Shown: positions 1,275 to 20,048 of the stretch, piece by piece
Layout of the letters: every line of letters begins with the position of its first letter
Numbering within the stretch: position 1 is the stretch's first letter
Source: Flavobacteriaceae bacterium
GTDB lineage: Bacteria > Bacteroidota > Bacteroidia > Flavobacteriales > Flavobacteriaceae
Assembly: GCA_965224465.1 (NCBI GenBank)
Contig: OZ245049.1
Coordinates: forward strand, 2,250,001 to 2,282,000
Length of the DNA: 32,000 bases
Direction of reading: 5' to 3'
The notes under the pieces: generated by a model
What the model was told of the DNA's origin: nothing
What the model saw: only the letters and a program-made list of their open reading frames with translations
Database searches by the model: none
Translations under genes and position numbers: made by a program

Positions 1275-1423
1275 TTTATGACGATCACAATTGAACGCAT
1301 ATTAGCAAAGGTATATTCTACTTTTAATATCGGTGTTCTTTTTATAAAAAAAAGAGAGGTTTCTAAATTGGTTCTTTATTGCCAATCTTAACTCCCTTTT
1401 ATTTATAAAATTTAAATACTTTT

Positions 1424-1470
1424 AAAACAGTATAAAACCCAAGGGTACTCCTTTCTTTTTATACTGTTTT
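1424..1470 (+). terminator. Long A/T-rich hairpin about 150 nt downstream of the oxidoreductase gene (possible terminator)
   Basis: Perfect 14-bp inverted repeat aaaacagtataaaa (1424-1437) / ttttatactgtttt (1457-1470) with a 19-nt loop. The loop (cccaagggtactcc) resembles the 5' part of the family-1 intergenic element. The large loop and AT-only stem are atypical for an intrinsic terminator. Confidence 0.3.
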
Positions 1471-1721
1471 CTCTAATTAATATCAAATAATACCCTTATA
1501 GTTAAGGAGGAATTTCTATTCATTGATTACAGATAGACTATCCACAAAACAGTACTGTTTTTTACTCATTCTCTTTTTCTTTAGTAAATCGATATGATCT
1601 CCGAATAGTAAAAAAGGTTAATTCTACCTGTTTTTTTCTGATTTCAAGGTGCTTTTATGGACTAAAAACAACATGGCTAAAAAGGCAATCCTGTTTTTTA
1701 AAAATCAGAAACTGATACCTA

Positions 1722-1824
1722 AATCAACAGCATCGACCCTAGGGCACGAGGCATACTCCCGAAATACTCTTTTCTATTTTGAGGCAACCCCTTCTGAATT
1801 TAAATCCTCAATGAGGGATTAAAA
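1722..1824 (+). repeat. Intergenic repeat family 1, copy A (upstream of giant gene)
   Basis: The 82-nt core 1743-1824 (ggcacgaggcatactcccgaaa...gagggattaaaa) aligns without gaps to 15018-15099 with 62/82 identities (hand alignment). The shared atcaaca...ccct lead-in extends the match about 20 nt upstream. Confidence 0.7.
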
Positions 1825-2394
1825 ACACAAATACCTTTAAATTAAGCTGTTAGTTTCCTTTTTTTTTATTAAATTTAGACGAATAAAAAATACTTTTATA
1901 GGATTATAGCCCGCGTATTTTTATTTTTAAATAATATTGAAAAAACATAGACTCAATTTTAAGTAGTCTTTCTGAAATTATTTTCAAGAAAATTACAAAC
2001 ACATATCTATTGAATTAAAAAGCAATCGGTAAATATCTTACCCCATTTTGAATTGATTCTTATCCTAAAAGACGCAATAAAAAATTACACATACTCTATT
2101 TTTGATGTCGTTGTTTTTTAAATGATACGTATCAGAAAGTTCTCCCCTTATTTTACATATAAGAAGTTACAGTAAAACAGCACATAGCATCCTTATGGGC
2201 CTAAGGTGAAATCTGATTTTTATTAACAGGATAAATTCAAAAAAAATGACATTAAAAGTTTCGCTAAAAAAGAAAAAATATTCAATAGCACAGGCAGTAT
2301 CAACATGTAAAAAGGTGATTTTAAAACTGATACAGGGTCTAATTATATAAGAACAATTGAATTAAAAAACGTCTATCACATAATTAAATTTAAC

Positions 2395-2448
2395 ATGAAA
2401 AAAGAACTACTTATTTTATTCCTCTTATTTCTAAACACAGCCTATTCA
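2395..2448 (+). other. Signal peptide of giant protein (SPase I type)
   Basis: MKKELLILFLLFLNTAYS/QIK: charged N-region, hydrophobic core, small residues at -3/-1. No Cys, so it is not a lipoprotein. Confidence 0.7.
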
Positions 2449-5400
2449 CAAATAAAAATAGGAAATGACCCAGAAATTATAGATGGAAATTCGTTGTTAG
2501 AGCTTAAAAGTAAAGAAAAGGTTTTTGTATTGACAAGAATCAATACTTATCAAATGAATTTGATATCACCTTTGGAAGGCGCTATCATCTATAATACAGA
2601 TTTTCAATGTATCTTTCAATACAACGGGATCTTATGGGAAAACTTATGCGATAGCAGCTCTGACAATCAGACACTTAATTTTGATCCTATAACAAATATA
2701 CTAACTTTAGAAAACGGAGGAACTGTAGACCTCTCTAGCTTTTCTTCTACAGACAGTCAAAACTTAACATTAATTGAAAACACCCTTATTTTAGAAAATG
2801 GAGGAATTGTAGACCTATCTAAATACCTAGACAATACAGACGACCAATATTTTACAGATTTTTCTGTTTCTGGAACTACATTAACCATCTCTTTAGAAAA
2901 TGGAGGAACTAAACATGTAGATCTATCTGCCTTTGAAGAATCTACTGAAATAGCCACCAATCTAGAAAAAATCACTACAAACGCAAGTGATATTACTGCC
3001 ATAGAAACTGAGCAAACAACACAGAACACAAACATTGCGGCAAATGCAAGTGACATTGACGCCCTAGAAACTGAGCAAACTACTCAAAACACAAATATTG
3101 CAGCAAATACAAGTGACATTGATGCCCTAGAAACTGAGCAAACTACTCAGAATACAAATATTGCAGCAAACACTTCTAACATCTCAACAAATACCACAAA
3201 CATCACCACAAATACGAGTGACATTTCTGCTATAGAAATTGAGCAAACAACACAGAACACAAACATTGCGGCAAATGCAAGTGACATTGACGCCTTAGAA
3301 ACCGAGCAAACTACCCAAAACACAAATATTGCGGCAAATACCACAAACATTGCTACAAATGCAAGTGACATTGACGTCATAGAAACTGAGCAAACTACTC
3401 AGAACACAAATATTGCAGCAAATACCACAAACATCACCACAAACTCAAGTGACATTGATGCCTTAGAAACTGAGCAAACTACTCAGAACACAAATATTGC
3501 AGCAAACACCACAAACATCACCACAAATGCAAGCGATATTGATGCTATAGAAACCGTACAAACTACTCAAAACACAAACATCACTACAAACGCAAGTGAC
3601 ATTGATGCCCTAGAAACTGAACAAACTACTCAGAACACAAATATTGCAGCAAATACTTCCAATATCTCAACAAATACCACAAACATCACCACAAATGCGA
3701 GTGACATTGACGCCATAGAAACTGAGCAAACTACTCAAAACACAAATATTGCAGCAAATACATCTAACATCTCAACAAATGCAAGTGATATTACTGCCAT
3801 AGAAACTGAGCAAACTACTCAGAATACAAATATTGCAGCAAACACTTCCGACATCTCAACAAATACAAGTGACATTTCTGATATAGAAATTGAGCAAACT
3901 ACTCAAAATACAAACATCGCAGCGAATACAAGTGATATTTCTGATATAAAAACCGAGCAAACTACTCAGAATACAAATATTGCAGCAAACGCTTCCGACA
4001 TCTCAACAAATACCACAAACATCACCACAAATGCGAGTGACATTTCTGCTATAGAAACTGAGCAAACAACGCAGAACACAAACATAGCAGCAAATACAAG
4101 TGACATTGATGCCCTAGAAACTGAGCAAACTACTCAAAATACTAATATTGCAGCAAACACTTCCAATATCTCAACAAATACCACAAACATCACCTCAAAT
4201 GCGAGTGACATTGACGCCATAGAAACTAAGCAAACTACTCAAAATACTAATATTGCTGCAAATACAACAAACATCACTACAAATGCGAGTGACATTTCTG
4301 ATATAGAAATTGAGCAAACAACGCAGAATACAAACATCGCAGCAAATACAACAAACATCACTACAAACACAAGTGACATTTCTGATATAGAAACCGAGCA
4401 AACAACGCAGAACACAAACATTGCTGCAAATACAACAAACATCACTACAAACTCAAGTGACATTGATGCCCTAGAAACTGAGCAAACTACTCAGAACACG
4501 AACATTGCGGCAAACATTTCCGACATCTCAACAAATACCACAAACATCACCTCAAATGCGAGTGACATTGACGCCATAGAAACTGAACAAACAACGCAGA
4601 ACACAAACATAGCAGCAAATACAAGTGACATTGATGCCCTAGAAACTGAGCAAACTACTCAAAATACTAATATTGCAGCAAACACTTCCAATATCTCAAC
4701 AAATACCACAAACATCACCTCAAATGCGAGTGACATTGACGCCATAGAAACTGAGCAAACTACTCAAAATACTAATATTGCTGCAAATACAACAAACATC
4801 ACTACAAATGCGAGTGACATTTCTGATATAGAAATTGAGCAAACAACGCAGAATACAAACATCGCAGCAAATACAACAAACATCACTACAAACACAAGTG
4901 ACATTTCTGATATAGAAACCGAGCAAACAACGCAGAACACAAATATTGCAGCAAACACTTCTAACATCTCAACAAACGCAAGTGATATTACTGCTATAGA
5001 AACTGAGCAAACTACTCAGAACACAAATATTGCAGCAAACGCTTCCGACATCTCAACAAATACAACAAACATCACCACAAATGCGAGTGACATTGACGCC
5101 ATAGAAACTGAACAAACTACTCAAAACACAAACATCGCGGCAAACACAAATGATATTTCTGATATAAAAACCGAGCAAACTACTCAGAATACAAATATTG
5201 CAGCAAACACTTCTAACATCTCAACAAATACCACAAACATCACCTCAAATGCGAGTGACATTGACGCCATAGAAACTGAGCAAACTACTCAGAACACGAA
5301 CATTGCGGCAAATACAACAAACATCACTACAAATGCGAGTGACATTTCTGATATAGAAATTGAGCAAACAACGCAGAATACAAACATCGCAGCAAATACA

Positions 5401-8400
5401 ACAAACATCACTACAAACACAAGTGACATTTCTGATATAGAAACCGAGCAAACAACGCAGAACACAAACATTACTGCAAATACAACAAACATCACTACAA
5501 ACTCAAGTGACATTGATGCCCTAGAAACTGAGCAAACTACTCAGAACACGAACATTGCGGCAAACACTTCCGACATCTCAACAAATACCACAAACATCAC
5601 CTCAAATGCGAGTGACATTGACGCCATAGAAACTGAACAAACAACGCAGAACACAAACATAGCAGCAAATACAAGTGACATTGATGCCCTAGAAACTGAG
5701 CAAACTACTCAAAATACTAATATTGCAGCAAACACTTCCAATATCTCAACAAATACCACAAACATCACCTCAAATGCGAGTGACATTGACGCCATAGAAA
5801 CTGAGCAAACTACTCAAAATACTAATATTGCTGCAAATACAACAAACATCACTACAAATGCGAGTGACATTTCTGATATAGAAATTGAGCAAACAACGCA
5901 GAATACAAACATCGCAGCAAATACAACAAACATCACTACAAACACAAGTGACATTTCTGATATAGAAACCGAGCAAACAACGCAGAACACAAACATTGCT
6001 GCAAATACAACAAACATCACTACAAACTCAAGTGACATTGATGCCCTAGAAACTGAGCAAACTACTCAGAACACGAACATTGCGGCAAACACTTCCGACA
6101 TCTCAACAAATACCACAAACATCACCTCAAATGCGAGTGACATTGACGCCATAGAAACTGAACAAACAACGCAGAACACAAACATAGCAGCAAATACAAG
6201 TGACATTGATGCCCTAGAAACTGAGCAAACTACTCAAAATACTAATATTGCAGCAAACACTTCCAATATCTCAACAAATACCACAAACATCACCTCAAAT
6301 GCGAGTGACATTGACGCCATAGAAACTGAGCAAACTACTCAAAATACTAATATTGCTGCAAATACAACAAACATCACTACAAATGCGAGTGACATTTCTG
6401 ATATAGAAATTGAGCAAACAACGCAGAATACAAACATCGCAGCAAATACAACAAACATCACTACAAACACAAGTGACATTTCTGATATAGAAACCGAGCA
6501 AACAACGCAGAACACAAATATTGCAGCAAACACTTCTAACATCTCAACAAACGCAAGTGATATTACTGCTATAGAAACTGAGCAAACTACTCAGAACACA
6601 AATATTGCAGCAAACGCTTCCGACATCTCAACAAATACAACAAACATCACCACAAATGCGAGTGACATTGACGCCATAGAAACTGAACAAACTACTCAAA
6701 ACACAAACATCGCGGCAAACACAAATGATATTTCTGATATAAAAACCGAGCAAACTACTCAGAATACAAATATTGCAGCAAACACTTCTAACATCTCAAC
6801 AAATACCACAAACATCACCTCAAATGCGAGTGACATTGACGCCATAGAAACTGAGCAAACTACTCAGAACACGAACATTGCGGCAAACACTTCCGACATC
6901 TCAACAAATACCACAAACATCACCACAAATACGAGTGACATTGACGCCATAGAAACTGAGCAAACTACTCAAAACACAAATATTGCAGCAAATACTTCTA
7001 ACATCACCACAAATGCGAGTGACATTGATGACATAGAAACCGAGCAAACTACTCAGAACACGAACATTGCGGCAAACACTTCCGACATCTCAACAAATAC
7101 AACAAACATCACCACAAGTGCGAGTGACATTGACGCCATAGAAACTGAACAAACTACTCAAAACACAAACATCGCAACAAACACTTCCAGTATCTCAACA
7201 AATACCACAAACATCACTACAAACGCAAGTGATATTGATACCCTAGAAACTGAACAAACAACACAGAATACAAATATTGCAACAAACACTTCTAACATCA
7301 CCACAAATACAAGTAACATTGATGCCATAGAAACTGAGCAAACTACTCAAAACACAAACATTGCGGCAAACACTTCTAACATCTCAACAAATACAACAAA
7401 CATCACCACAAATGCGAGTGACATTTCTGCTATAGAAACTGAACAAACAACGCAGAATACAAACATCGCAACAAATGCAAGTGACATTGACACCATAGAA
7501 ACCGAGCAAACAACACAGAACACAAATATTGCGGCAAACACAACAAACATCACCACAAATGCAAGCGATATTGACGCCATAGAAACTGAGCAAACTACTC
7601 AAAACACAAATATTGCAGCAAACACTTCCGACATCTCAACAAATACAACAAACATCACTACAAACTCAAGTGACATTGACGCCATAGAAACTGAGCAAAC
7701 AACACAGAATACAAATATTGCAGCAAACACTTCTAACATCACCACAAATGCGAGTGACATTTCTGCTATAGAAACTGAACAAACTACTCAAAACACTAAT
7801 ATTATAGCAAACACTTCTAACATCTCAACAAATACCACAAACATCACCACAAATGCGAGTGACATTTCTGATATAGAAACCGAGCAAACTACTCAAAACA
7901 CTAATATTACAGCAAACACTTCCAATATCTCAACAAATACCACAAACATCACCTCAAATGCGAGTGACATTGACGCCATAGAAACTGAGCAAACTACTCA
8001 AAATACTAATATTGCTGCAAATACAACAAACATCACTACAAATGCGAGTGACATTTCTGATATAGAAATTGAGCAAACAACGCAGAATACAAACATCGCA
8101 GCAAATACAACAAACATCACTACAAACACAAGTGACATTTCTGATATAGAAACCGAGCAAACAACGCAGAACACAAATATTGCAGCAAACACTTCTAACA
8201 TCTCAACAAACGCAAGTGATATTACTGCTATAGAAACTGAGCAAACTACTCAGAACACAAATATTGCAGCAAACGCTTCCGACATCTCAACAAATACAAC
8301 AAACATCACCACAAATGCGAGTGACATTGATGCCATAGAAACTGAACAAACTACTCAAAACACAAACATCGCGGCAAACACAAATGATATTTCTGATATA

Positions 8401-11400
8401 AAAACCGAGCAAACTACTCAGAATACAAATATTGCAGCAAACACTTCTAACATCTCAACAAATACCACAAACATCACCTCAAATGCGAGTGACATTGACG
8501 CCATAGAAACTGAGCAAACTACTCAGAACACGAACATTGCGGCAAATACAACAAACATCACTACAAATGCGAGTGACATTTCTGATATAGAAATTGAGCA
8601 AACAACGCAGAATACAAACATCGCAGCAAATACAACAAACATCACTACAAACACAAGTGACATTTCTGATATAGAAACCGAGCAAACAACGCAGAACACA
8701 AATATTGCAGCAAACACTTCTAACATCTCAACAAACGCAAGTGATATTACTGCTATAGAAACTGAGCAAACTACTCAGAACACAAATATTGCAGCAAACG
8801 CTTCCGACATCTCAACAAATACAACAAACATCACCACAAATGCGAGTGACATTGACGCCATAGAAACTGAACAAACTACTCAAAACACAAACATCGCGGC
8901 AAACACAAATGATATTTCTGATATAAAAACCGAGCAAACTACTCAGAATACAAATATTGCAGCAAACACTTCTAACATCTCAACAAATACCACAAACATC
9001 ACCTCAAATGCGAGTGACATTGACGCCATAGAAACTGAGCAAACTACTCAGAACACGAACATTGCGGCAAACACAACAAACATCACTACAAACTCAAGTG
9101 ACATTGATGCCTTAGAAACTGAGCAAACAACGCAGAACACGAACATTGCGGCAAACACTTCCAACACCTCAACAAATACCACAAACATCACCACAAATGC
9201 GAGTGACATTTCTGCTATAGAAACTGAACAAACTACTCAGAACACAAACATCGCAACAAATGCAAGTGACATTGACACCATAGAAACTGAGCAAACAACG
9301 CAGAACACAAACATAGCAACAAATACAAGTGATATTACTGCCATAGAAACTGAGCAAACTACTCAAAATACTAATATTGCTGCAAATACAACAAACATCA
9401 CTACAAATGCGAGTGACATTTCTGATATAGAAATTGAGCAAACAACGCAGAATACAAACATCGCAGCAAATACAACAAACATCACTACAAACACAAGTGA
9501 CATTTCTGATATAGAAACCGAGCAAACAACGCAGAACACAAATATTGCAGCAAACACTTCTAACATCTCAACAAACGCAAGTGATATTACTGCTATAGAA
9601 ACTGAGCAAACTACTCAGAACACAAATATTGCAGCAAACGCTTCCGACATCTCAACAAATACAACAAACATCACCACAAATGCGAGTGACATTGACGCCA
9701 TAGAAACTGAACAAACTACTCAAAACACAAACATCGCGGCAAACACAAATGATATTTCTGATATAAAAACCGAGCAAACTACTCAGAATACAAATATTGC
9801 AGCAAACACTTCTAACATCTCAACAAATACCACAAACATCACCTCAAATGCGAGTGACATTGACGCCATAGAAACTGAGCAAACTACTCAGAACACGAAC
9901 ATTGCGGCAAATACAACAAACATCACTACAAATGCGAGTGACATTTCTGATATAGAAATTGAGCAAACAACGCAGAATACAAACATCGCAGCAAATACAA
10001 CAAACATCACTACAAACACAAGTGACATTTCTGATATAGAAACCGAGCAAACAACGCAGAACACAAATATTGCAGCAAACACTTCTAACATCTCAACAAA
10101 CGCAAGTGATATTACTGCTATAGAAACTGAGCAAACTACTCAGAACACAAATATTGCAGCAAACGCTTCCGACATCTCAACAAATACAACAAACATCACC
10201 ACAAATGCGAGTGACATTGACGCCATAGAAACTGAACAAACTACTCAAAACACAAACATCGCGGCAAACACAAATGATATTTCTGATATAAAAACCGAGC
10301 AAACTACGCAGAATACAAATATTGCAGCAAACACTTCTAACATCACCACAAATACAAGCGGTATTACAGCCATAGAAACTGAGCAAACAACGCAGAATAC
10401 AAACATCGCAGCAAACACTTCCAGTATCTCAACAAATACCACAAACATCACCACAAATACGGGTGACATTGACGCCATAGAAACTGAGCAGACTACTCAA
10501 AACACAAACATAGCAACAAATACAACAAACATCACTACAAACTCAAGTGACATTGACGCCATAGAAACTGAACAAACTACTCAAAACACAAATATTGCAG
10601 CAAATACAAGTGATATTTCTGATATAAAAACTGAGCAAACTACTCAGAACACGAACATTGCGGCAAACACTTCCGACATCTCAACAAATACCACAAACAT
10701 CACCACAAATACGAGTGACATTGACGCCATAGAAACCGAGCAAACTACTCAGAATACAAATATTGCAGCAAATACAACAAACATCACTACAAACTCAAGT
10801 GACATTGACGCCATAGAAACTGAACAAACTACTCAAAACACAAACATCGCGGCAAATACAAGTGATATTTCTGATATAAAAACCGAGCAAACTACTCAGA
10901 ATACAAATATTGCAGCAAACACTTCTAACATCTCAACAAATACCACAAACATCACTACAAACGCAAGTGATATTACAAATCTAGAAACTGAGCAAACTAC
11001 TCAAAACACAAATATTGCAGCAAATACTTCTAACATCACCACAAATGCGAGTGACATTGATGACATAGAAACTGAGCAAACAACACAGAATACAAATATT
11101 GCAACAAATACATCTAACATCACTACAAACGCAAGTGATATTACTGCTATAGAAACCGAGCAAACTACTCAGAACACGAACATTGCGGCAAACACTTCCG
11201 ACATCTCAACAAATACCACAAACATCACCACAAATACGAGTGACATTGACGCCATAGAAACTGAGCAAACAACGCAGAACACAAACATTGCTGCAAATAC
11301 AACAAACATCACTACAAACTCAAGTGACATTGATGCCCTACAAACTGAGCAAACTACTCAGAACACGAACATTGCGGCAAACACTTCCGACATCTCAACA

Positions 11401-14400
11401 AATACCACAAACATCACCTCAAATGCGAGTGACATTGACGCCATAGAAACTGAACAAACTACTCAAAACACAAACATCGCGGCAAATACAAGTGATATTT
11501 CTGATATAAAAACCGAGCAAACTACTCAGAATACAAATATTGCAGCAAACACTTCTAACATCTCAACAAATACCACAAACATCACCTCAAATGCGAGTGA
11601 CATTTCTGCTATAGAAACTGAACAAACTACTCAAAACACAAACATCGCGGCAAACACAAATGATATTTCTGATATAAAAACCGAGCAAACTACTCAGAAT
11701 ACAAATATTGCAGCAAACACTTCCAACATCTCAACAAACACCACAAACATCACCACAAATGCGAGTGACATTGACGCCATAGAAACTGAGCAAACTACTC
11801 AAAACACAAACATCGCGGCAAACACAAGTGACATTTCTGATATAGAAACCGAGCAAACAACGCAGAACACAAATATTGCAGCAAACACTTCTAACATCTC
11901 AACAAATACAACAAACATCACTACAAACTCAAGTGACATTGACGCCATAGAAACTGAACAAACTACTCAAAACACAAATATTGCAGCAAATACAAGTGAT
12001 ATTTCTGATATAAAAACTGAGCAAACTACTCAGAACACGAACATTGCGGCAAACACTTCCGACATCTCAACAAATACCACAAACATCACCACAAATACGA
12101 GTGACATTGACGCCATAGAAACCGAGCAAACTACTCAGAATACAAATATTGCAGCAAATACAACAAACATCACTACAAACTCAAGTGACATTGACGCCAT
12201 AGAAACTGAACAAACTACTCAAAACACAAACATCGCGGCAAATACAAGTGATATTTCTGATATAAAAACCGAGCAAACTACTCAGAATACAAATATTGCA
12301 GCAAACACTTCTAACATCTCAACAAATACCACAAACATCACTACAAACGCAAGTGATATTACAAATCTAGAAACTGAGCAAACTACTCAAAACACAAATA
12401 TTGCAGCAAATACTTCTAACATCACCACAAATGCGAGTGACATTGATGACATAGAAACTGAGCAAACAACACAGAATACAAATATTGCAACAAATACATC
12501 TAACATCACTACAAACGCAAGTGATATTACTGCTATAGAAACCGAGCAAACTACTCAGAACACGAACATTGCGGCAAACACTTCCGACATCTCAACAAAT
12601 ACCACAAACATCACCACAAATACGAGTGACATTGACGCCATAGAAACTGAGCAAACAACGCAGAACACAAACATTGCTGCAAATACAACAAACATCACTA
12701 CAAACTCAAGTGACATTGATGCCCTACAAACTGAGCAAACTACTCAGAACACGAACATTGCGGCAAACACTTCCGACATCTCAACAAATACCACAAACAT
12801 CACCTCAAATGCGAGTGACATTGACGCCATAGAAACTGAACAAACTACTCAAAACACAAACATCGCGGCAAATACAAGTGATATTTCTGATATAAAAACC
12901 GAGCAAACTACTCAGAATACAAATATTGCAGCAAACACTTCTAACATCTCAACAAATACCACAAACATCACCTCAAATGCGAGTGACATTTCTGCTATAG
13001 AAACTGAACAAACTACTCAAAACACAAACATCGCGGCAAACACAAATGATATTTCTGATATAAAAACCGAGCAAACTACTCAGAATACAAATATTGCAGC
13101 AAACACTTCCAACATCTCAACAAACACCACAAACATCACCACAAATGCGAGTGACATTGACGCCATAGAAACTGAGCAAACTACTCAAAACACAAACATC
13201 GCGGCAAACACAAGTGACATTTCTGATATAGAAACCGAGCAAACAACGCAGAACACAAATATTGCAGCAAACACTTCTAACATCTCAACAAATACCACAA
13301 ACATCACCACAAATGCGAGTGACATTGACGCCATAGAAACTGAACAAACTACTCAAAACACAAACATCGCGGCAAATACAAGTGATATTTCTGATATAAA
13401 AACCGAGCAAACTACTCAGAATACTAATATTGCGGCAAACACTTCTAACATCTCAACAAATACCACAAACATCACCTCAAATGCGAGTGACATTTCTGCT
13501 ATAGAAACTGAACAAACAACGCAGAACGCAAATATTGCAACAAACACTTCCAACATCTCAACAAATACAAGTGACATTACTGCCTTAGAAACTGAGCAAA
13601 CTACGCAGAATACAAATATTGGAACGAATACAGCAGACATTTCGACAAACACGACAAGCATTACAAATCACATAGCCAATGACTTAGATATCGACCCTAC
13701 TAATGAAATTCAAGACATCAGTATAATCGGTAATAATTTAACGATTTCAAATGGTAGCACAGTAACAATACCTACATCAGATGGATCAGAAACAATTATA
13801 CAGGCAGGAAATGCAATAACTACAATAACTGGTAGTGGTACAACAGCCGATCCATATATTGTAACAGCCACACCTGCAACATTAACCGATAATGGAGACG
13901 GAACATATACCTTTGCAAACGGAATTGACACCGATGTAACATTTGCCTTGGTTGCTAACACTCCTGCTCCTATTGTAGGGAATTCAAATACAAAAACAGG
14001 TTGTGAAGCAACAGAACAAGGAGAAACAAGCACCATTACCTTAACTGGAGAAAATTTTACATCTGACACCGTCATAACCATTCCAGGACAAACAATAGAT
14101 TATGTAACAGTAGTAAGTTCTACAGAAATAATAGTAGGAATAACTGCTGGTGGAGTTTCTGGTGATTTTGACGTAACAGCAACAAATACAAATGGTTCTG
14201 GCACATTAACCAATGGATTCCATATTAGAAATCCTTTAGTTACTAATACTATTTCAACGTTAAGCACAGACAACACAATGAATTACAACGGGTCAACGCT
14301 AGTAAAAACAGGCGGTAATGGTTGGAATGGAAACGCAAACTCAACAGCACCTAACGGCTCTTTAGAAACGGCAAAAAACGGAGGCTATTCATTTACTGTA

Positions 14401-14724
14401 AATCAAAATAACAAATGGATGAGTATGGGAATAGATGCGAACCCTTCCTTAGCCCACTCATGGAATACTATAGATTATGGTTTTAGATTTTCCAGTAGTG
14501 GAACATATAGAATTTATGAAAATAATTCGATGAAATTATCAAGTACACCTTATAATGCCAATGATAATTTTGAAATATTAAAAGATTGTAATGGAAACAT
14601 TACGTACTACAGAAATGGTAGTTTAATTTACACTTCCACTAGTACTGCGACAAACGACTTGTTTATTGACACTTGTTTTTACCACCAAAATGCCTCAGTT
14701 TCTAACATAAAACTAACAAAATAA
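2395..14724 (+). CDS. Giant secreted repeat protein (4,109 aa): putative coiled-coil fibre / adhesin-like surface protein
   Basis: Single uninterrupted 12,330-nt ORF in AT-rich DNA, which chance cannot explain. Sec-type signal peptide. Repeat cores differ only by synonymous codons, which supports real translation. The functional call is inferred from architecture only. Confidence 0.9.
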   Translation: MKKELLILFLLFLNTAYSQIKIGNDPEIIDGNSLLELKSKEKVFVLTRINTYQMNLISPLEGAIIYNTDFQCIFQYNGILWENLCDSSSDNQTLNFDPITNILTLENGGTVDLSSFSSTDSQNLTLIENTLILENGGIVDLSKYLDNTDDQYFTDFSVSGTTLTISLENGGTKHVDLSAFEESTEIATNLEKITTNASDITAIETEQTTQNTNIAANASDIDALETEQTTQNTNIAANTSDIDALETEQTTQNTNIAANTSNISTNTTNITTNTSDISAIEIEQTTQNTNIAANASDIDALETEQTTQNTNIAANTTNIATNASDIDVIETEQTTQNTNIAANTTNITTNSSDIDALETEQTTQNTNIAANTTNITTNASDIDAIETVQTTQNTNITTNASDIDALETEQTTQNTNIAANTSNISTNTTNITTNASDIDAIETEQTTQNTNIAANTSNISTNASDITAIETEQTTQNTNIAANTSDISTNTSDISDIEIEQTTQNTNIAANTSDISDIKTEQTTQNTNIAANASDISTNTTNITTNASDISAIETEQTTQNTNIAANTSDIDALETEQTTQNTNIAANTSNISTNTTNITSNASDIDAIETKQTTQNTNIAANTTNITTNASDISDIEIEQTTQNTNIAANTTNITTNTSDISDIETEQTTQNTNIAANTTNITTNSSDIDALETEQTTQNTNIAANISDISTNTTNITSNASDIDAIETEQTTQNTNIAANTSDIDALETEQTTQNTNIAANTSNISTNTTNITSNASDIDAIETEQTTQNTNIAANTTNITTNASDISDIEIEQTTQNTNIAANTTNITTNTSDISDIETEQTTQNTNIAANTSNISTNASDITAIETEQTTQNTNIAANASDISTNTTNITTNASDIDAIETEQTTQNTNIAANTNDISDIKTEQTTQNTNIAANTSNISTNTTNITSNASDIDAIETEQTTQNTNIAANTTNITTNASDISDIEIEQTTQNTNIAANTTNITTNTSDISDIETEQTTQNTNITANTTNITTNSSDIDALETEQTTQNTNIAANTSDISTNTTNITSNASDIDAIETEQTTQNTNIAANTSDIDALETEQTTQNTNIAANTSNISTNTTNITSNASDIDAIETEQTTQNTNIAANTTNITTNASDISDIEIEQTTQNTNIAANTTNITTNTSDISDIETEQTTQNTNIAANTTNITTNSSDIDALETEQTTQNTNIAANTSDISTNTTNITSNASDIDAIETEQTTQNTNIAANTSDIDALETEQTTQNTNIAANTSNISTNTTNITSNASDIDAIETEQTTQNTNIAANTTNITTNASDISDIEIEQTTQNTNIAANTTNITTNTSDISDIETEQTTQNTNIAANTSNISTNASDITAIETEQTTQNTNIAANASDISTNTTNITTNASDIDAIETEQTTQNTNIAANTNDISDIKTEQTTQNTNIAANTSNISTNTTNITSNASDIDAIETEQTTQNTNIAANTSDISTNTTNITTNTSDIDAIETEQTTQNTNIAANTSNITTNASDIDDIETEQTTQNTNIAANTSDISTNTTNITTSASDIDAIETEQTTQNTNIATNTSSISTNTTNITTNASDIDTLETEQTTQNTNIATNTSNITTNTSNIDAIETEQTTQNTNIAANTSNISTNTTNITTNASDISAIETEQTTQNTNIATNASDIDTIETEQTTQNTNIAANTTNITTNASDIDAIETEQTTQNTNIAANTSDISTNTTNITTNSSDIDAIETEQTTQNTNIAANTSNITTNASDISAIETEQTTQNTNIIANTSNISTNTTNITTNASDISDIETEQTTQNTNITANTSNISTNTTNITSNASDIDAIETEQTTQNTNIAANTTNITTNASDISDIEIEQTTQNTNIAANTTNITTNTSDISDIETEQTTQNTNIAANTSNISTNASDITAIETEQTTQNTNIAANASDISTNTTNITTNASDIDAIETEQTTQNTNIAANTNDISDIKTEQTTQNTNIAANTSNISTNTTNITSNASDIDAIETEQTTQNTNIAANTTNITTNASDISDIEIEQTTQNTNIAANTTNITTNTSDISDIETEQTTQNTNIAANTSNISTNASDITAIETEQTTQNTNIAANASDISTNTTNITTNASDIDAIETEQTTQNTNIAANTNDISDIKTEQTTQNTNIAANTSNISTNTTNITSNASDIDAIETEQTTQNTNIAANTTNITTNSSDIDALETEQTTQNTNIAANTSNTSTNTTNITTNASDISAIETEQTTQNTNIATNASDIDTIETEQTTQNTNIATNTSDITAIETEQTTQNTNIAANTTNITTNASDISDIEIEQTTQNTNIAANTTNITTNTSDISDIETEQTTQNTNIAANTSNISTNASDITAIETEQTTQNTNIAANASDISTNTTNITTNASDIDAIETEQTTQNTNIAANTNDISDIKTEQTTQNTNIAANTSNISTNTTNITSNASDIDAIETEQTTQNTNIAANTTNITTNASDISDIEIEQTTQNTNIAANTTNITTNTSDISDIETEQTTQNTNIAANTSNISTNASDITAIETEQTTQNTNIAANASDISTNTTNITTNASDIDAIETEQTTQNTNIAANTNDISDIKTEQTTQNTNIAANTSNITTNTSGITAIETEQTTQNTNIAANTSSISTNTTNITTNTGDIDAIETEQTTQNTNIATNTTNITTNSSDIDAIETEQTTQNTNIAANTSDISDIKTEQTTQNTNIAANTSDISTNTTNITTNTSDIDAIETEQTTQNTNIAANTTNITTNSSDIDAIETEQTTQNTNIAANTSDISDIKTEQTTQNTNIAANTSNISTNTTNITTNASDITNLETEQTTQNTNIAANTSNITTNASDIDDIETEQTTQNTNIATNTSNITTNASDITAIETEQTTQNTNIAANTSDISTNTTNITTNTSDIDAIETEQTTQNTNIAANTTNITTNSSDIDALQTEQTTQNTNIAANTSDISTNTTNITSNASDIDAIETEQTTQNTNIAANTSDISDIKTEQTTQNTNIAANTSNISTNTTNITSNASDISAIETEQTTQNTNIAANTNDISDIKTEQTTQNTNIAANTSNISTNTTNITTNASDIDAIETEQTTQNTNIAANTSDISDIETEQTTQNTNIAANTSNISTNTTNITTNSSDIDAIETEQTTQNTNIAANTSDISDIKTEQTTQNTNIAANTSDISTNTTNITTNTSDIDAIETEQTTQNTNIAANTTNITTNSSDIDAIETEQTTQNTNIAANTSDISDIKTEQTTQNTNIAANTSNISTNTTNITTNASDITNLETEQTTQNTNIAANTSNITTNASDIDDIETEQTTQNTNIATNTSNITTNASDITAIETEQTTQNTNIAANTSDISTNTTNITTNTSDIDAIETEQTTQNTNIAANTTNITTNSSDIDALQTEQTTQNTNIAANTSDISTNTTNITSNASDIDAIETEQTTQNTNIAANTSDISDIKTEQTTQNTNIAANTSNISTNTTNITSNASDISAIETEQTTQNTNIAANTNDISDIKTEQTTQNTNIAANTSNISTNTTNITTNASDIDAIETEQTTQNTNIAANTSDISDIETEQTTQNTNIAANTSNISTNTTNITTNASDIDAIETEQTTQNTNIAANTSDISDIKTEQTTQNTNIAANTSNISTNTTNITSNASDISAIETEQTTQNANIATNTSNISTNTSDITALETEQTTQNTNIGTNTADISTNTTSITNHIANDLDIDPTNEIQDISIIGNNLTISNGSTVTIPTSDGSETIIQAGNAITTITGSGTTADPYIVTATPATLTDNGDGTYTFANGIDTDVTFALVANTPAPIVGNSNTKTGCEATEQGETSTITLTGENFTSDTVITIPGQTIDYVTVVSSTEIIVGITAGGVSGDFDVTATNTNGSGTLTNGFHIRNPLVTNTISTLSTDNTMNYNGSTLVKTGGNGWNGNANSTAPNGSLETAKNGGYSFTVNQNNKWMSMGIDANPSLAHSWNTIDYGFRFSSSGTYRIYENNSMKLSSTPYNANDNFEILKDCNGNITYYRNGSLIYTSTSTATNDLFIDTCFYHQNASVSNIKLTK
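2449..2934 (+). other. N-terminal head: conserved Bacteroidota-type N-domain plus three LENGG modules
   Basis: aa 19-85 (NSLLELKSKEKVFVLTRINTYQMNLISPLEGAIIYNTD...YNGILWENL) resembles, from memory, the N-terminal module seen in many Bacteroidota surface or tail-fiber-like proteins. Three roughly 27-aa modules follow: TLNFDPITNILTLENGGTVDLSSF, NLTLIENTLILENGGIVDLSKYLD and FSVSGTTLTISLENGGTKHVDLSAF. Confidence 0.5.
4113..6850 (+). repeat. 525-bp (175-aa, 6-unit) higher-order repeat zone with a 1575-bp super-period
   Basis: Sequence at 4141 recurs at 4666. Identical antisense-ORF translations recur at 4195/4720/5770/6295 (a variant at 5245), at 4239/5814, and at 4764/6339. The same block types reappear at 7954-8726 and 9319-10091. 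Confidence 0.9.
10515..13295 (+). repeat. Perfect 1,386-bp (462-aa) tandem duplication inside the array
   Basis: Line-by-line comparison of 10518-11400 with 11904-12786 found no mismatch. The 11821-11909 stretch also matches 13207-13295. The copies diverge at about 11910/13296. Identical antisense ORFs at 10981 and 12367 have the same 1,386-bp offset. Confidence 0.9.
13693..13773 (+). other. Fourth LENGG-like module immediately after the repeat array
   Basis: DPTNEIQDISIIGNNLTISNGSTVTIP resembles the three N-terminal modules (xNQTLxF...NxLTLENGGTVDL). It is followed by TLTDNGDGTYTFANGIDTDVTF. Confidence 0.45.
13963..14235 (+). other. IPT/TIG-like Ig-fold domain
   Basis: PAPIVG...GETSTITLTGENFTSDTVITIPGQTIDYVTVVSSTEIIVGITAGGVSGDFDVTATNTNGSGTLTNGFHI follows the P-x-I...G-x-x-(I/L)-T-(I/L)-x-G-x-N-F...V-x-(I/V)-G...S-x-x-x-I-x-V pattern typical of IPT/TIG domains. 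Judged by eye only. Confidence 0.5.
14236..14721 (+). other. C-terminal ~160-aa beta-sandwich / lectin-like (LamG/ConA-like) domain
   Basis: GGNGWNGNANS...GGYSFTVNQNNKWMSMGID...IDYGFRFSSSGTYRIYENNSMKL...DNFEILKDCNGNITYYRNGSLIYTS shows alternating beta-strand-like pattern with aromatic and Gly/Asn turns. No YPNP / KLIK-type T9SS CTD pattern was seen. Confidence 0.4.
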
Positions 14725-15189: not shown

Positions 15190-16941
15190 TTACGAAGGTA
15201 TTTCTCCTTCTTTTAGAGGAACATTTTGCGGAACAAAATCTTCATCCCATCCTGGCTTACTATAATCATAAGCCCAACGGTGAACTTCTGGAATTGCTCC
15301 AGGCCAATTTCCATGCACATGTTCCACAGGAGTCGTCCATTCCAACGTATTGGAATTCCATGGATTCTGAGTTGCTTTTTTACCCCTATAAATACTCATA
15401 AAGAAGTTCGCTAAAAATATAATTTGAGCAGCCCCTCCAAGAATGGCAAATAAGGTAATTACAATATTAATATCTTGCACATCGTCAAACAACGGAAATG
15501 CAGTATTGTTATAATATCTACGTGGTAATCCAGCCAATCCAACAAAATGCATTGGAAAGAAAACACCATAGGCGGCGACTGCTGTAATCCAAAAATGCCA
15601 GTATCCTAAAGTTTTATTCATCATTCTCCCATACATTTTAGGGAACCAATGATACACACCCGCAAACATTCCGTAAATAGCAGACACACCCATCACCAAG
15701 TGAAAATGCGCCACTACAAAGTAAGTGTCATGGACATTTATATCCAAGGCTGAATCTCCTAAAACCAATCCTGTCAATCCACCTGTAATAAAAGTAGAAA
15801 CAAGTCCTATAGAAAATAACATGGCTGGATTCATTTGCAGATTCCCTTTCCATAAAGTCGTTAAATAGTTAAATGATTTTACAGCTGATGGAATGGCAAT
15901 TAACAAGGTTGTAAAAGTAAATACAGACCCCAAGAAAGGATTCATTCCAGACACAAACATATGATGACCCCAAACAATAGTAGACAAGAATGCTATGGCT
16001 ATAATCGATGCAATCATGGCACGGTACCCAAAAATAGGTTTTCTAGAATTTGTAGAAATTACTTCAGAAGTAATACCTAATGCTGGCAATAATACAATAT
16101 ACACCTCTGGATGTCCTAGAAACCAAAATAGATGTTCGAACAGCACAGGTGAACCTCCTTGATAATGCAGCACTTCACCGTTTATAAAAATATCAGACAA
16201 AAAGAATGATGTTCCGAAACTACGATCAAAAATTAATAATAAGGCAGCTGACAACAATACTGGAAATGAAACTACTCCAATAATAGCAGTTACAAAAAAG
16301 GTCCAGATAGTTAAAGGCAAACGTGTCATTTTCATACCCACGGTACGTAAATTAAGCACGGTTACAATATAATTTAATGATCCCAACAAAGAGGATGCAA
16401 TAAAAATAGCCATAGAAATCAACCACAATGTCATTCCCATCCCAGAGCCTGGCATTGCTTGTGGCAAGGCACTTAGAGGAGGATAAATAGTCCATCCTGC
16501 AGCTGCAGGTCCTGCTTCCACAAATAAGGAAATCAGCATTAATAAACTAGATAAGAAAAACAACCAGTAAGAGACCATATTCAAAAATCCAGAAGCCATA
16601 TCACGAGCTCCAATTTGCAATGGAATTAATAAATTACTAAACGTTCCACTCAGTCCAGCTGTAAGTACAAAAAACACCATAATGGTTCCGTGAATAGTCA
16701 CTAAGGCTAAGTACATATCTGGAGTCATTACTCCATCAACTTGATGAGGGCCTAAAAAGGCTTCGATTAGGGTAAATGAATGGTCTGGCCAAGCTATTTG
16801 TAACCGAAACATCATGGACATTAAAACGCCAATGACTCCCATAAAAATACCTGTCACCAAGTATTGTTTTGAAATCATTTTATGATCGGTACTAAAAATA
16901 TATTTTGTTACAAAAGTTTCTTTGTGATGATGCGCTGACAT
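15190..16941 (-). CDS. ctaD: Cytochrome c oxidase subunit I (heme-copper oxidase, aa3-type)
   Basis: 583 aa, polytopic. Carries signature motifs GHPEVYIVLLPALG, WGHHMF (CuB His pair) and VVAHFHLVM (heme ligands). Confidence 0.95.
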   Translation of the reverse strand: MSAHHHKETFVTKYIFSTDHKMISKQYLVTGIFMGVIGVLMSMMFRLQIAWPDHSFTLIEAFLGPHQVDGVMTPDMYLALVTIHGTIMVFFVLTAGLSGTFSNLLIPLQIGARDMASGFLNMVSYWLFFLSSLLMLISLFVEAGPAAAGWTIYPPLSALPQAMPGSGMGMTLWLISMAIFIASSLLGSLNYIVTVLNLRTVGMKMTRLPLTIWTFFVTAIIGVVSFPVLLSAALLLIFDRSFGTSFFLSDIFINGEVLHYQGGSPVLFEHLFWFLGHPEVYIVLLPALGITSEVISTNSRKPIFGYRAMIASIIAIAFLSTIVWGHHMFVSGMNPFLGSVFTFTTLLIAIPSAVKSFNYLTTLWKGNLQMNPAMLFSIGLVSTFITGGLTGLVLGDSALDINVHDTYFVVAHFHLVMGVSAIYGMFAGVYHWFPKMYGRMMNKTLGYWHFWITAVAAYGVFFPMHFVGLAGLPRRYYNNTAFPLFDDVQDINIVITLFAILGGAAQIIFLANFFMSIYRGKKATQNPWNSNTLEWTTPVEHVHGNWPGAIPEVHRWAYDYSKPGWDEDFVPQNVPLKEGEIPS

Positions 16942-17015
16942 AGCTCTAATTTTGTTAGTTGTTAGTTACTAGTATTTGATTGCTAGTTATTGATGCTAGA
17001 TATTGGTACTACTTT

Positions 17016-18023: not shown

Positions 18024-18056
18024 TATAGTTTGTTAGTTAGTAATAGTGAGCCAAAT

Positions 18057-18090
18057 ATAAAAAAAATCCTGAACATAACCAGTTCAGGAT
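18057..18090 (-). terminator. Intrinsic terminator between actF and coxB
   Basis: 9-bp stem atcctgaac (18066-18074) / gttcaggat (18082-18090) with a 7-nt loop. On the minus strand it is followed by a T-run (complement of the A-run at 18057-18065). It sits 28 nt past the actF stop. Confidence 0.55.
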
Positions 18091-18117
18091 TTTATTATAC
18101 CTTTTTTTTTATATTTT

Positions 18118-19458: not shown

Positions 19459-19485
19459 ATCTTTAAATTCTATCTTCCTTAAGTA

Positions 19486-20043: not shown

Positions 20044-20048
20044 TTCTC

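Follow-up and report, generated by a model that had tools for sequence, protein, structure and literature searches.

The reading frame at 2395..14724 (+) of the window, the 32,000-nt stretch of DNA that was analysed, encodes a protein of 4,109 residues (432 kDa), which is probably an exported, fibre-forming member of a large and as yet uncharacterised family found in marine Flavobacteriaceae; we hold this as the best explanation with fair, not high, confidence. The 12,330-nt frame was already part of the original prediction and is confirmed by the ORF list and the translation, and all overlapping ORFs, on either strand, are of 123 aa or less. The gene is chromosomal and surrounded by respiratory and translation genes, and no conserved partner gene adjoining it was found in the neighbourhood comparison. 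The following features are located on the gene:

2395..2448 (+), Sec signal peptide, aa 1–18, MKKELLILFLLFLNTAYS (sequence and family alignments)
2449..2658 (+), conserved N-terminal head domain, aa 19–88 (homologues and alignments)
2659..2949 (+), neck of three beta-type repeats of ~30 aa, aa 89–185 (sequence)
2950..13680 (+), 511 uninterrupted heptads, aa 186–3762 (phase and composition analysis, tandem repeats, AF2, PDB matches)
10514..13295 (+), perfect tandem duplication within the array, identical over 1,396 nt at an offset of 1,386 nt (self-comparison)
13681..13959 (+), linker and small beta units after the coil, aa 3763–3855 (sequence)
13960..14229 (+), Ig-like (IPT-type) beta-sandwich domain, predicted, aa 3856–3945 (alignment and AF2/Foldseek of homologue P0022)
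14230..14724 (+), C-terminal ConA-like/SPRY-like jelly-roll tip, predicted, aa 3946–4109 and stop (AF2/Foldseek of P0022)

The array consists of 3,577 residues in 511 heptads with zero phase insertions or deletions. It had been expected to parse entirely into heptads from about nt 2950 to 13690, which agrees with the measured bounds. Position a is occupied by I (387), Q (123) and T (1), and position d by N (263, 51%), Q (123, 24%), I and L (104 and 19, 24%), S (1) and H (1), with Thr at e following the Asn in 176 of the 263 N layers. The heptads, of which 50 are distinct, follow a simple grammar of 123 units, each (IxxN[TA]xx)1-3 + Ixx[IL]ETE + QTTQNTN, where 29 units have three heptads, about 50 have four and about 44 have five; the predicted N at d in three of five heptads is thus correct for the five-heptad units but not for the array as a whole. 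T constitutes 27% of the residues, N 18%, I 14%, A 11%, S 9%, Q 7%, D 7% and E 6%. P, C, F, Y, W, M and R are absent and Gly is found three times, as anticipated from the near-absence of Pro, Gly, aromatic residues and Cys. About half of the core positions are polar, the net charge is -454 per chain, and the g-e' pairs include 103 acid-acid pairs but only 16 potential salt bridges. With such a polar core and so few salt bridges the stability of the array is not obvious.

The heptad pattern exceeds both chance and DNA slippage. Codon positions 1 and 2 are invariant at a and d, with variation at b, c, e, f and g, and the 122 copies of QTTQNTN are written in 20 DNA versions with 99.4% of the codon differences being synonymous, indicating purifying selection on this peptide. 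Fixed core positions together with varying synonymous sites argue for selection on the protein. Tandem repeats have periods of 21/63/84/105 nt, and self-comparison resolves the array as a mosaic of segmental duplications with offsets that include 525, 1365, 1386 and 1575 nt, every one of them a multiple of 21 nt, as should be the case if the array grows by in-register tandem duplication. The 175-aa higher-order unit that had been proposed exists in parts of the array, as a 525-nt period, and is absent elsewhere. The duplication at 10514..13295 marks a recent in-register expansion and is where the copy number is least certain, since perfect tandem repeats of 1.4 kb make the number of copies in an assembly uncertain. 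Part of the extreme length might therefore be an artefact of the assembly, or come from an expansion that is unstable and specific to the strain, with a substantially different true copy number. Besides the 1,396-nt repeat, several copies of 1.1–1.6 kb are 99.6–99.7% identical, 46 of 80 related genes in public genomes reach contig ends just past the head, all metagenome relatives are truncated, and no identical protein was found on record. We nevertheless regard an artefact as unlikely: the 12.3-kb reading frame is intact, the diversity of heptads and of QTTQNTN versions is that of a diverged mosaic and not of one collapsed unit, and the array minus its youngest duplicates would still exceed 2,500 residues.

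AF2 predicts a fragment of the array as a single 208-residue helix with a mean pLDDT of 88.9 (monomer run, self-derived alignment); the best three of the five models are one helix with pLDDT 82–89, and the other two are poor (52 and 28). The proposed helical coil is thereby supported as a continuous helix, neither beta nor disordered. PDB matches are to trimeric coiled coils only, namely P22 gp26 (4lin, E 2e-4), the HK620 needle (5bu5) and UspA1; the last, from the trimeric autotransporter adhesins (TAAs), is a weak match by profile. PHROG tail-needle and phage-fibre coil families also match the array, and P0152, a YadA_stalk protein, is among the coil matches. The alternative of an intrinsically disordered, hydrated and acidic Thr/Asn/Ser-rich spacer or brush between folded ends would suit the composition (T+N+S+Q 61%, Ile/Leu only about 15%), the charge and the low confidence of two models, and standard tools confidently predict polar-core coiled-coil sequences as disordered (PMC13580157). 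It is very unlikely. Nothing in a disordered linker would require the register to be kept over 511 heptads, a and d to stay fixed against the drift seen at the remaining positions and at synonymous sites, or Pro and nearly all Gly to be avoided, and needles and fibres of phages and stalks of the TAA type contain the same module.

The array is instead predicted, from its sequence and the models, to form one continuous parallel trimeric coiled coil with a polar core and a length of about 530 nm. Ile at a with Asn-Thr at d and e is the N@d/N(d)T signature of trimeric coiled coils, as had been recognized; in known trimers such Asn layers coordinate anions, N(d)T is a binding site for Cl-, and further halide sites arise from Q at a together with Ile or Val at a (PMC4786415, PMC13580157, PMC12933892). 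Another architecture, be it a dimer, a tetramer, an antiparallel coil or a hetero-oligomer with another protein, is quite unlikely. The oligomer state is a prediction from sequence with AF2 run on a monomer, and for the Asn-rich giant coils of Dreissena tpf1 trimer and tetramer models were equally good (PMC10691215), but the signature is that of trimers and the matches in the PDB are all parallel trimers. The hydrophobic d positions are mostly Ile (104 against 19 Leu). According to the Harbury rules for GCN4, Ile at both a and d is said to favour trimers. Collagen is an obligate trimer, and collagen-like stalks in relatives with the same head, some of them in series with the same coil module in one chain, support a trimer here.

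In the proposed assembly the protein would be exported by Sec and cleaved before Gln19, three chains would associate in parallel, and the heptads would wind into a continuous left-handed trimeric coiled coil. Its core would have Ile at a and Asn at d in 263 layers, which by analogy with known trimers may hold a buried chloride or other anion, and each unit would add one fully hydrophobic Ile/Leu d layer and one pair of Gln at a and d. The surface of the rod should be rich in hydroxyls and strongly acidic, and we infer that its stability requires the chloride and cations of seawater.

The N-terminus reads as a Sec/SPase I signal, in line with the original prediction, with cleavage predicted before Gln19, between MKKELLILFLLFLNTAYS and QIKIG. 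Family alignments have the hydrophobic leader in common, followed by an invariant Q at +1 and then (V/I)KIG. The head contains two invariant Cys, C72 and C85 (invariant columns in alignments A3 and A4), and its homologues are 39–60% identical; no Pfam or NCBIfam model matches it, and in the AF2 model of P0022 it is poorly modelled (pLDDT 50–78). The neck repeats, with the consensus xxQxLxLxxNxLxLENGGxVDLSxx, precede the coil and are also found in tandem in homologues P0001, P0003, P0004, P0010 and P0011. We take the head to be the end that would remain at the cell, or bound to a partner for assembly or anchoring.

At the other end the linker contains, in order, a DLDIDPTNEIQ cap, a IIGNNLTISNGSTVTIP repeat, a GSETIIQAGNAITTITGSGTTADPYIV unit and an LTDNGDGTYTF unit. 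The H..D.D...NE[IL]Q cap follows coil modules also in P0008, P0043, P0062, P0161 and P0162, and P0030, P0035 and P0037 carry repeats of the GSET...DPY unit. The fold of the tail is read from the AF2 model of P0022, a homologue with 40% identity, and not from the protein itself. This tail models as an Ig-like domain (pLDDT 86–94) and a ConA/SPRY-like jelly roll (pLDDT about 90), consistent with the IPT-like domain and lectin-like tip suggested before. Foldseek matches of the Ig-like part are the Bacteroides SGBP-B tandem Ig proteins, plexin IPT domains and viral IPT/TIG proteins; those of the tip are SPRY/B30.2 domains (TM 0.6), 1,3-1,4-beta-glucanase, PL7 alginate lyases, the Emp47p lectin and the botulinum Hc domain; and in BFVD the tail matches ConA-like and tail-fibre proteins of marine phages. 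The modelled tail thus resembles glycan binders among Bacteroides surface proteins as well as phage fibre tips, and the tip is a candidate ligand-binding (glycan-binding) domain.

The head is the constant module that defines the family, with at least 414 confirmed loci among GTDB species representatives, in marine Flavobacteriaceae; this is the phylogenetic distribution that had been asked for, and stalks and tips vary within it. The stalks are interchangeable: some are triple helices of collagen, some are beta repeats, and some are short coils that follow the ExEQTTQNTNI grammar. Collagen-like extenders of family members match Scl/Lcl models, and collagen-like stalks of about 2,000 aa are carried by L017 (Tenacibaculum sp. 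ZS6-P6) and L041 (Aquimarina sp. SS2-1); coil modules and a collagen region are joined in one chain in P0162 and P0049, and short members of about 385 aa have a head and a tip but no stalk. With its relatives (for example P0161 and P0163, Maribacter-like; P0162, Olleya-like; L017; L041) the giant protein has in common the signal peptide, the Q at +1, the head with its Cys pair, the LENGGxVDLS repeats, the ExEQTTQNTNI coil module and the H..D.D..NE[IL]Q cap. It differs in having one uninterrupted coil of 511 heptads, whereas coils in the relatives total at most 65 heptads, in segments of at most 25 alternating with small beta modules, their other stalks are collagen-like or beta repeats, and their tips are different. 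Many of the relatives lie in tandem clusters adjoining a T9SS-CTD protein, while the giant-coil gene is solitary. The building block is not new: this coil module occurs widely among fibre proteins of Flavobacteriaceae and among phage tail-fibre-like proteins.

The rod would act as a spacer that keeps the Ig-like and ConA/SPRY-like tip some half a micrometre away from the conserved head, and its likely purpose is attachment over a long reach to surfaces that bear glycans, for instance those of particles, algae or other cells. We infer the surface location, polarity and fibre length of the protein, and its role as an adhesin. There is a low probability that it is instead released structural material, such as matrix fibres, a component of a sheath or net, or a thread precursor turning from helix to beta sheet like Dreissena tpf1; a periplasmic location is less likely still. 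Its size and an Asn content of 18% match tpf1, which forms load-bearing fibres (PMC10691215), and no lipobox, beta-barrel anchor, T9SS C-terminal domain (CTD) or T1SS signal, or known outer-membrane export or anchoring signal of any kind, was found in the protein. The polar architecture, in which the head is conserved and the lectin-like tip varies, an arrangement shared by adhesins and phage fibres, speaks against release, and so do the Cys residues confined to the end domains and the absence of self-assembly or cross-linking motifs. The stalkless members also fit a binding protein better.

The N@d motif of TAA stalks was reportedly described in a study from 2009. The giant coil shares with these stalks the heptads of the form [ILV]xxNTxx, in which d is Asn and e is Thr, and a strong asymmetry between a and d, with polar residues at about 5% of a and 45% of d in TAAs and at 24% and 76% in the giant coil; the total of about 50% is like that of Saa, the most extreme natural case cited (PMC4786415, PMC13580157). 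The giant coil has a regular QxxQ heptad and is not broken by the heptad/pentadecad transitions or necks of TAA stalks. The protein also belongs to another phylum, it probably runs in the opposite orientation, its conserved end being N-terminal, and it was rejected as a trimeric autotransporter as it lacks the YadA_anchor beta-barrel and a YadA head or neck, and does not match the YadA_stalk model.

Phage needles and fibres (P22 gp26, HK620; PHROGs) are the best sequence matches among solved structures and PHROGs. The phage-like proteins P0045, P0054 and P0058 share LQTEQTTQNTNI / NTTNI heptads with the giant coil, and its modelled tail resembles the tips of marine Flavobacteriaceae phage proteins. 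Unlike these proteins, it has a Sec signal peptide, a chromosomal gene and no phage attachment domains, and it is 10 to 50 times longer; tblastn in 50,697 phage records gave no match to it.

Closest in size are the tpf1 byssal thread precursors of Dreissena, called the 'largest coiled coil ever discovered' and inferred to originate from an unidentified bacterium (PMC10691215). Compared by description, tpf1 has 4,068 aa against 4,109, 440 kDa against 432, and 19–20% Asn against 18% in the core of the giant protein, and its coiled coil, predicted to be trimeric or tetrameric, would be about 600 nm long, compared with about 530 nm for that of the giant protein (PMC10691215). Unlike the giant protein, tpf1 is built from about 20 loose repeats, some of them beta-barrel-like, is encoded by a eukaryote, and forms a material that converts to beta crystallites (PMC10691215).

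With SprB-type T9SS filaments, RTX/BIg adhesins and collagen-like Scl/Lcl proteins the protein shares a constant end, a long repetitive extender and a ligand-binding tip, in accordance with the giant-adhesin layout first proposed for it, where the Ig-like and ConA/SPRY-like tip is modelled on P0022. Its extender is predicted to be an alpha-helical coiled coil, and no RTX repeats, BIg/cadherin repeats or LPXTG were found in it; it was rejected as T9SS cargo for want of the CTD, and as an RTX adhesin for want of RTX repeats and a T1SS signal. The top PDB matches by Foldseek of a head-plus-tail homologue are SGBP-B proteins (7k44, 6e9b, 6d2y), which likewise have Ig-like domains in tandem and a beta-sandwich binding domain at the end, with 14–16% identity and TM-scores of about 0.2 that are low owing to the domain arrangement. 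SGBP-B are lipoproteins of polysaccharide utilisation loci (PUL), while the giant protein has neither a lipobox nor a PUL context. The sequence predicts that the giant coil takes to an extreme a type of stalk that bacterial adhesins and phage tail fibres also have; the motif is already known and the scale is new, with 511 heptads, about 530 nm and half of the core polar.

The giant protein is encoded by one ORF, and all ORFs overlapping it on either strand are 123 aa or shorter. The positions of the ORF and of its heptad array in the window are as follows.

Window 2395–14724, + strand: giant ORF, 12,330 nt, 4,109 aa
Window 2950–13680, + strand: heptad array, aa 186–3762, 511 consecutive heptads with zero phase shifts

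The protein begins with a typical Sec leader, MKKELLILFLLFLNTAYS followed by QIKIG, and the mature form is 432 kDa with a pI of about 4. Position a of the array is occupied by Ile (387 heptads), Gln (123) and Thr (1), and position d by Asn (263), Gln (123), Ile (104), Leu (19), Ser (1) and His (1). In the 263 heptads with Asn at d, position a is Ile in all but one, which has Thr, and the residue following Asn is T in 176, A in 73 and S in 12. The original prediction of a continuous heptad core was correct in its coordinates and description according to this parse and the residue counts, but its figure of Asn at d in three of five heptads holds for the longest unit only, the overall figure being 51%. 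The array is built of 123 units, each consisting of 1–3 IxxN[TA]xx heptads followed by one Ixx[IL]ETE and one QTTQNTN, and the periods of 21, 63, 84 and 105 nt given by Tandem Repeats Finder match this grammar. Together Thr, Asn, Ile, Ala and Ser account for 79% of its residues, Gly is present three times and Lys 18 times, and Pro, Cys, Phe, Tyr, Trp, Met and Arg are lacking. D[ST][AILVMT] is the general O-glycosylation motif, and with only three such motifs in the core, general O-glycosylation is rejected as the source of the Thr/Ser richness.

The heptad QTTQNTN is present in 122 copies written with 20 distinct DNA strings, and 99.4% of the codon differences among the copies are synonymous. 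In all heptad classes codon positions 1 and 2 of a and d are invariant, while b, c, e, f, g and the third positions vary, as is expected if a and d form a structural core. The array is shaped by protein-level constraint rather than by DNA slippage, and it has expanded by in-register segmental duplication. The duplicated copies are 0.5–1.6 kb long with offsets of 525, 1365, 1386 and 1575 nt among others, every one a multiple of 21. These segmental copies include one perfect tandem repeat of 1,396 nt, indicating that the expansion is partly recent. Since the copies are near-identical, the exact repeat number depends on the quality of the long-read assembly, and a rival explanation is that the array is over-assembled, in which case some of the 511 heptads would be a product of the assembly.

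Using an AlphaFold2 monomer input of 210 array residues, with an alignment of 20 array segments, a single continuous helix was predicted over residues 2–209 with a mean pLDDT of 88.9; three of the five models were concordant and two were poor. The array has the [ILV]xxNTxx pattern of the N@d class (beta-branched a, Asn at d and usually Thr at e), and also the continuous heptad periodicity of that class, with no phase break in 511 heptads and a helix as predicted by AlphaFold2. A rival view is that the array is a disordered brush. It has a net charge of -454, and among its g-e' pairs there are 103 acid-acid pairs versus only 16 possible salt bridges; the prediction of one helix supports the original proposal of a helical rather than a beta or disordered array. 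A beta-solenoid or antifreeze-like fold is rejected from the period of seven, the one hydrophobic residue per 3.5 residues and the predicted helix. It is very probable that the array is an alpha-helical coiled-coil rod, with a calculated length of 531 nm at 0.1485 nm per residue.

Pfam and NCBIfam searches with the head, coil and tail gave no family, the coil showing sub-threshold similarity to SMC-type coiled coils only. When all PDB sequences were searched with the coil, the biologically plausible matches were parallel trimeric coiled coils only, the best being gp26, the P22 tail needle (4lin, E 2e-4), whose heptads align with those of the array, followed by the HK620 needle and, by profile, gp26 again and the UspA1 stalk of a trimeric autotransporter adhesin (TAA). 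The coil is also similar to PHROG families that cover the coils of phage needles and fibres, and the PDB sequence search with the head and tail gave nothing meaningful. Asn at d is an anion-coordinating residue in trimeric coiled coils (PMC4786415), crystal structures of designed trimers show chloride bound to N(d)T motifs (PMC13580157), and the recurring halide sites of trimeric coiled coils are Asn triads at d or Gln triads at a, beside Ile or Val at a (PMC12933892). In TAA stalks about 5% of the residues at a and about 45% of those at d are polar, and about 50% is the figure for the most polar cores in nature (PMC13580157). The array has 24% polar residues at a, 76% at d and 50.1% overall, and is thus at the known natural limit along its whole length. 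We infer that the rod would depend on seawater chloride and cations.

Relatives of the N-terminal 185 residues, with 39–60% identity, are found in Pricia, Cellulophaga, Sediminicola, Eudoraea, Arenibacter, Lutibacter, Marinifilum and Saprospiraceae, and are annotated as partial almost without exception. Common to them are the leader with Gln at +1, a roughly 70-aa head in which two Cys are invariant, and repeats of the form LxLENGGxVDLS. The giant protein likewise has a Sec signal, Gln at +1 and the head VLTR..M..I.PL.GA..YNTD..C...YNG..W..LC, which shares 43–59% identity with the heads of eight family members, 24 alignment columns, both Cys among them, being invariant, and three LxLENGGxVDLS repeats follow the head at aa 89–185. 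The family cap H..D.D..NE[IL]Q stands after the coil as HIANDLDIDPTNEIQ, from aa 3759, and both the LENGGxVDLS repeats and the cap recur in the homologues P0043, P0161 and P0162. A scan of GTDB (one genome per species of bacteria and archaea), with an alignment of four head sequences as query and confirmation by tblastn, gave at least 414 head-family loci. The best 80 of the 414 are all from marine Flavobacteriaceae-type genomes with a top identity of 61%, indicating that the source species is absent from the scanned set. In 46 of these 80 the contig stops inside the gene, no more than a few hundred bases from the head, and the family is mostly hidden in public genomes because short-read assemblies break in the repeats after the head. 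Literature searches for this family or PF26696 found no description.

Complete family genes encode 222–2,626 aa, with at least 3,430 aa in Tenacibaculum sp. nBUS_03, and the stalks are collagen-like G-x-T triplets of about 2,000 residues, long arrays of beta modules, or short coils. Three loci with related head genes represent the long types.

Locus L017, 10001–16840, Tenacibaculum sp. ZS6-P6: head-family protein of 2,279 aa with a G-x-T collagen-like stalk of about 2,000 residues (GATGQTGATGNT...)
Locus L041, 10001–17716, Aquimarina sp. SS2-1: head-family protein of 2,571 aa with a G-x-T collagen-like stalk of about 2,000 residues
Locus L051, 10001–20291, Tenacibaculum sp. nBUS_03, complete genome: head-family gene of 3,430 aa or more, extending past the flank covered, with dozens of near-identical beta-type modules of about 70 aa (ALTTMALNADGKTLEYTDEDGTTTSIDLSTVIAGFETLTVLNVDNAAGKLTYKDENGTTNDVDLTALIATHE)

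The fibres of L017 and L041 would also be about half a micrometre long if they are true triple helices. As the stalk type is swapped and the ends are kept, reach itself appears to be under selection.

Among 1.84 billion representative proteins, the coil is matched best by P0161, P0162 and P0163, with E-values from 1e-160 to 1e-77, and these three have the same head as the giant protein. Their coil module, D[IL]xxLE[TA]EQTTQNTNIxxN, stands in segments of up to 25 heptads separated by small beta modules and by the H..D.D..NE[IL]Q cap, which also terminates the giant array. In P0162 and in the homologue P0049 the coil runs on into a collagen region matching the Scl/Lcl models. Collagen in series with the coil module, together with collagen replacing the coil in relatives, is the strongest available argument that the family, and with it the giant stalk, is trimeric. 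A coil of another oligomer state is the rival here, and the plausible PDB matches likewise concern trimers; we consider it probable that the rod is a trimer.

The longest unbroken run of heptads elsewhere, among the best 150 library matches and all earlier matches, is 65 in a phage-like protein, against 511 in the array, and JGI metagenome contigs searched with the coil gave only six relatives, short and truncated. The lack of other giants is weak evidence since assemblies truncate such genes. Three secreted proteins of Bacteroidota type, P0172 (1,837 aa), P0245 (1,881 aa) and P0214 (3,144 aa), have a different N-terminal domain (..ITYQAVI.. or ..ILFQAVARDA..) and pure N@d arrays of 35–48 heptads (TNATNIAANTAAIATNTTDIA...), indicating that more than one Bacteroidota fibre family uses an N@d stalk. 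In the giant viruses Marseilleviridae, P0082 and P0069, annotated as autotransporter adhesin or SMC, have heptads in the style NTxNI/LQGQV and match the array with E-values of 1e-15 to 1e-16.

The last approximately 330 residues of the giant protein are 32–43% identical to stand-alone proteins of about 385 aa in Aquimarina, Tenacibaculum and uncultured Flavobacteriaceae. Each comprises a leader, an abbreviated head and this tail, and is the giant protein minus its stalk. An AlphaFold2 model of one of them, the homologue P0022, is all-beta, with a pLDDT of 79.6 overall and about 90 in the tail, the head being poorly modelled. Foldseek with this model found Bacteroides surface glycan-binding proteins SGBP-B, SPRY/B30.2 domains with a TM of about 0.6, and other ConA-like jelly rolls (glucanase, PL7 alginate lyases and the Emp47p lectin). 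In a viral structure library the same model matched marine phage proteins, including those of Tenacibaculum phage PTm1 and Cellulophaga phage phi13:1, and ConA-like tail-fibre proteins. The IPT-like and lectin-like tip that had been proposed is thus supported for its fold class, on the homologue P0022.

The 12-stranded beta-barrel that forms the C-terminal anchor of TAAs (YadA_anchor) has no Pfam or NCBIfam match in the tail, which aligns instead to soluble Ig and ConA/SPRY-like domains, and YadA_stalk, YadA_head and Hep_Hag have no match in the giant protein at E<=1; P0152, a match found with the coil, does hit YadA_stalk at 3e-46. With no match to anchor, head or stalk, the giant protein is not a trimeric autotransporter. 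T9SS sorting domains (TIGR04183, TIGR04131 and CHU_C) were found by Pfam and NCBIfam neither in the tail nor in five family members, and such models do work on these Flavobacteriaceae proteins, as CHU_C matches a neighbour of the relatives at 5e-25. The lipobox and the LPXTG motif are absent from the giant protein. An RTX/T1SS giant adhesin is rejected because of the Sec signal and the absence of RTX and BIg matches in Pfam and NCBIfam, and a bacterial collagen-like protein because there is no Gly-X-Y region and only the three Gly in the array, although the relatives L017, L041 and P0162 have collagen-like regions. Membership in the gp26 tail-needle family is rejected as well, since the flanking N-terminal gp10-binding tip and the C-terminal domain are not present and the similarity is limited to the coil heptads (query 23–146 against gp26 96–211). 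The head and tail have no PHROG match, and tblastn with the coil and the tail found nothing in 50,697 phage records, probably with masking of the coil as low complexity.

The giant gene is solitary in the window, and its surroundings are listed here.

Window 1275–2394: upstream gap of 1.1 kb, AT-rich with about 30% GC, no ORF above 57 aa
Window 15190–26673, - strand: respiratory operon (cytochrome oxidase and alternative complex III), convergent and downstream of the giant gene
Window 28150–29154, + strand: IS30-like transposase (HTH_38 and integrase core), in the AT-rich gap between the alternative complex III operon and infB

For a bacterial intergenic region the upstream gap is of unusual length, and the regulatory region of the giant gene may lie in it. 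Rfam and tRNA scans of the window, this gap included, gave nothing, and a scan for σ70 promoters and terminators on both sides of the gene was no better than for shuffled sequences, with models that do not cover Bacteroidota promoters. The operon encodes cytochrome c oxidase subunits I and II, cytochrome c, ActD, an NrfD-like protein, a molybdopterin/FeS ActB-like protein and a multihaem cytochrome, and an ORF inside it at 18118–19458 (446 aa) has no Pfam match. The transposase gene has non-coding flanks at 27257–28149 and 29155–30112. A prophage origin is rejected, the flanks being the respiratory-chain operon, infB and a halogenase-like gene.

The recurrent neighbours of the relatives are housekeeping genes (IDH, MurQ-like SIS, MscS and peptidases) and one gene for a CHU_C protein, and none of them, the CHU_C gene included, is present in the window, so no partner gene can be proposed for the giant gene. 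In about 30 of the 80 related loci, tandem head-family genes are followed by this conserved protein of about 385 aa, which has a T9SS type-B C-terminal domain (5e-25) and could be an anchoring or secretion partner.

Locus L001, 12876–14015: CHU_C protein of about 385 aa
Locus L002, 15077–16234: CHU_C protein of about 385 aa
Locus L009, 16145–17302: CHU_C protein of about 385 aa

At 12573–15061 of L002, small tandem paralogues with a short head variant (ELIGLYSVE...YVYT..GW) and differing tips follow the main fibre gene, which suggests fibre-gene clusters with exchangeable tips.

In the mechanism that we propose, the protein would be exported by Sec with cleavage before Gln19, and three parallel chains would then form a continuous coiled coil of about 530 nm with N@d and Gln layers, stabilised by buried halides and screened by sea salt. 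The conserved head would be the constant end, for anchoring or assembly, and the variable Ig and ConA/SPRY-like tip would bind a ligand at the distal end. The likely function is long-reach attachment to glycan-bearing surfaces. The chain as a whole, from Sec export to the distal tip, we hold to be moderately probable. That the giant protein is a cell-anchored adhesin is a more tentative suggestion; as a rival it may be released fibre material, for which the absence of lipobox, LPXTG, YadA_anchor and T9SS sorting domain matches speaks, and against which stand the conserved head at one end and the lectin-like tip at the other.

The N@d motif, its structural meaning and the presence of such coils in adhesin stalks and phage fibres are already known. 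New are the scale and perfection of the array, the natural-maximum polar fraction kept over about 3,600 residues, the membership in a large undescribed Flavobacteriaceae family with swappable trimeric stalks, and the absence of any known surface-export signal. If the reading is true, a coiled coil found in nature would run for about 3,600 residues free of stutters and breaks, half of its core being polar, and would test ideas on the limits of core polarity and on the maximal length of a single register. Candidate halide sites in a single molecule would number up to 263 with Asn triads and 123 with Gln triads, suiting it for the study of salt-dependent folding in a marine protein and possibly as a design template for very long soluble rods. 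The family also bears on outer-membrane export and anchoring in Bacteroidota, the predicted trimeric rod being 3 x 432 kDa.

A joint reading, which we regard as unlikely in its entirety, is that the giant protein would be the extreme of an unrecognised class of Bacteroidota surface fibres with a constant N-terminal head, exchangeable trimeric stalks of coiled coil, collagen or beta repeats, and phage-like lectin tips. Such fibres would follow a head-dependent route to the surface and not that of T9SS-CTD proteins, lipoproteins, autotransporters or T1SS, the halide-zippered stalk of 511 heptads would be the longest continuous coiled coil known from any organism, and the bacterial stock would be akin to the source of the Asn-rich "massive coiled coils" of zebra and quagga mussel byssus. 

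The byssal protein tpf1 of Dreissena, with 4,068 aa, 440 kDa and 19–20% Asn, is predicted to form a trimeric or tetrameric coil about 600 nm long; it has been called the largest coiled coil known, and its origin is ascribed to a transfer whose bacterial donor is unidentified (PMC10691215). The best 150 library matches contained no recognisable giant of the tpf1 kind. Size and composition were the features compared for tpf1 (Db-tpf1iii, GenBank OR105623), and in both it comes nearest to the giant protein; the family would be a testable candidate source for the bacterial gene from which the mussel byssal thread protein derives.
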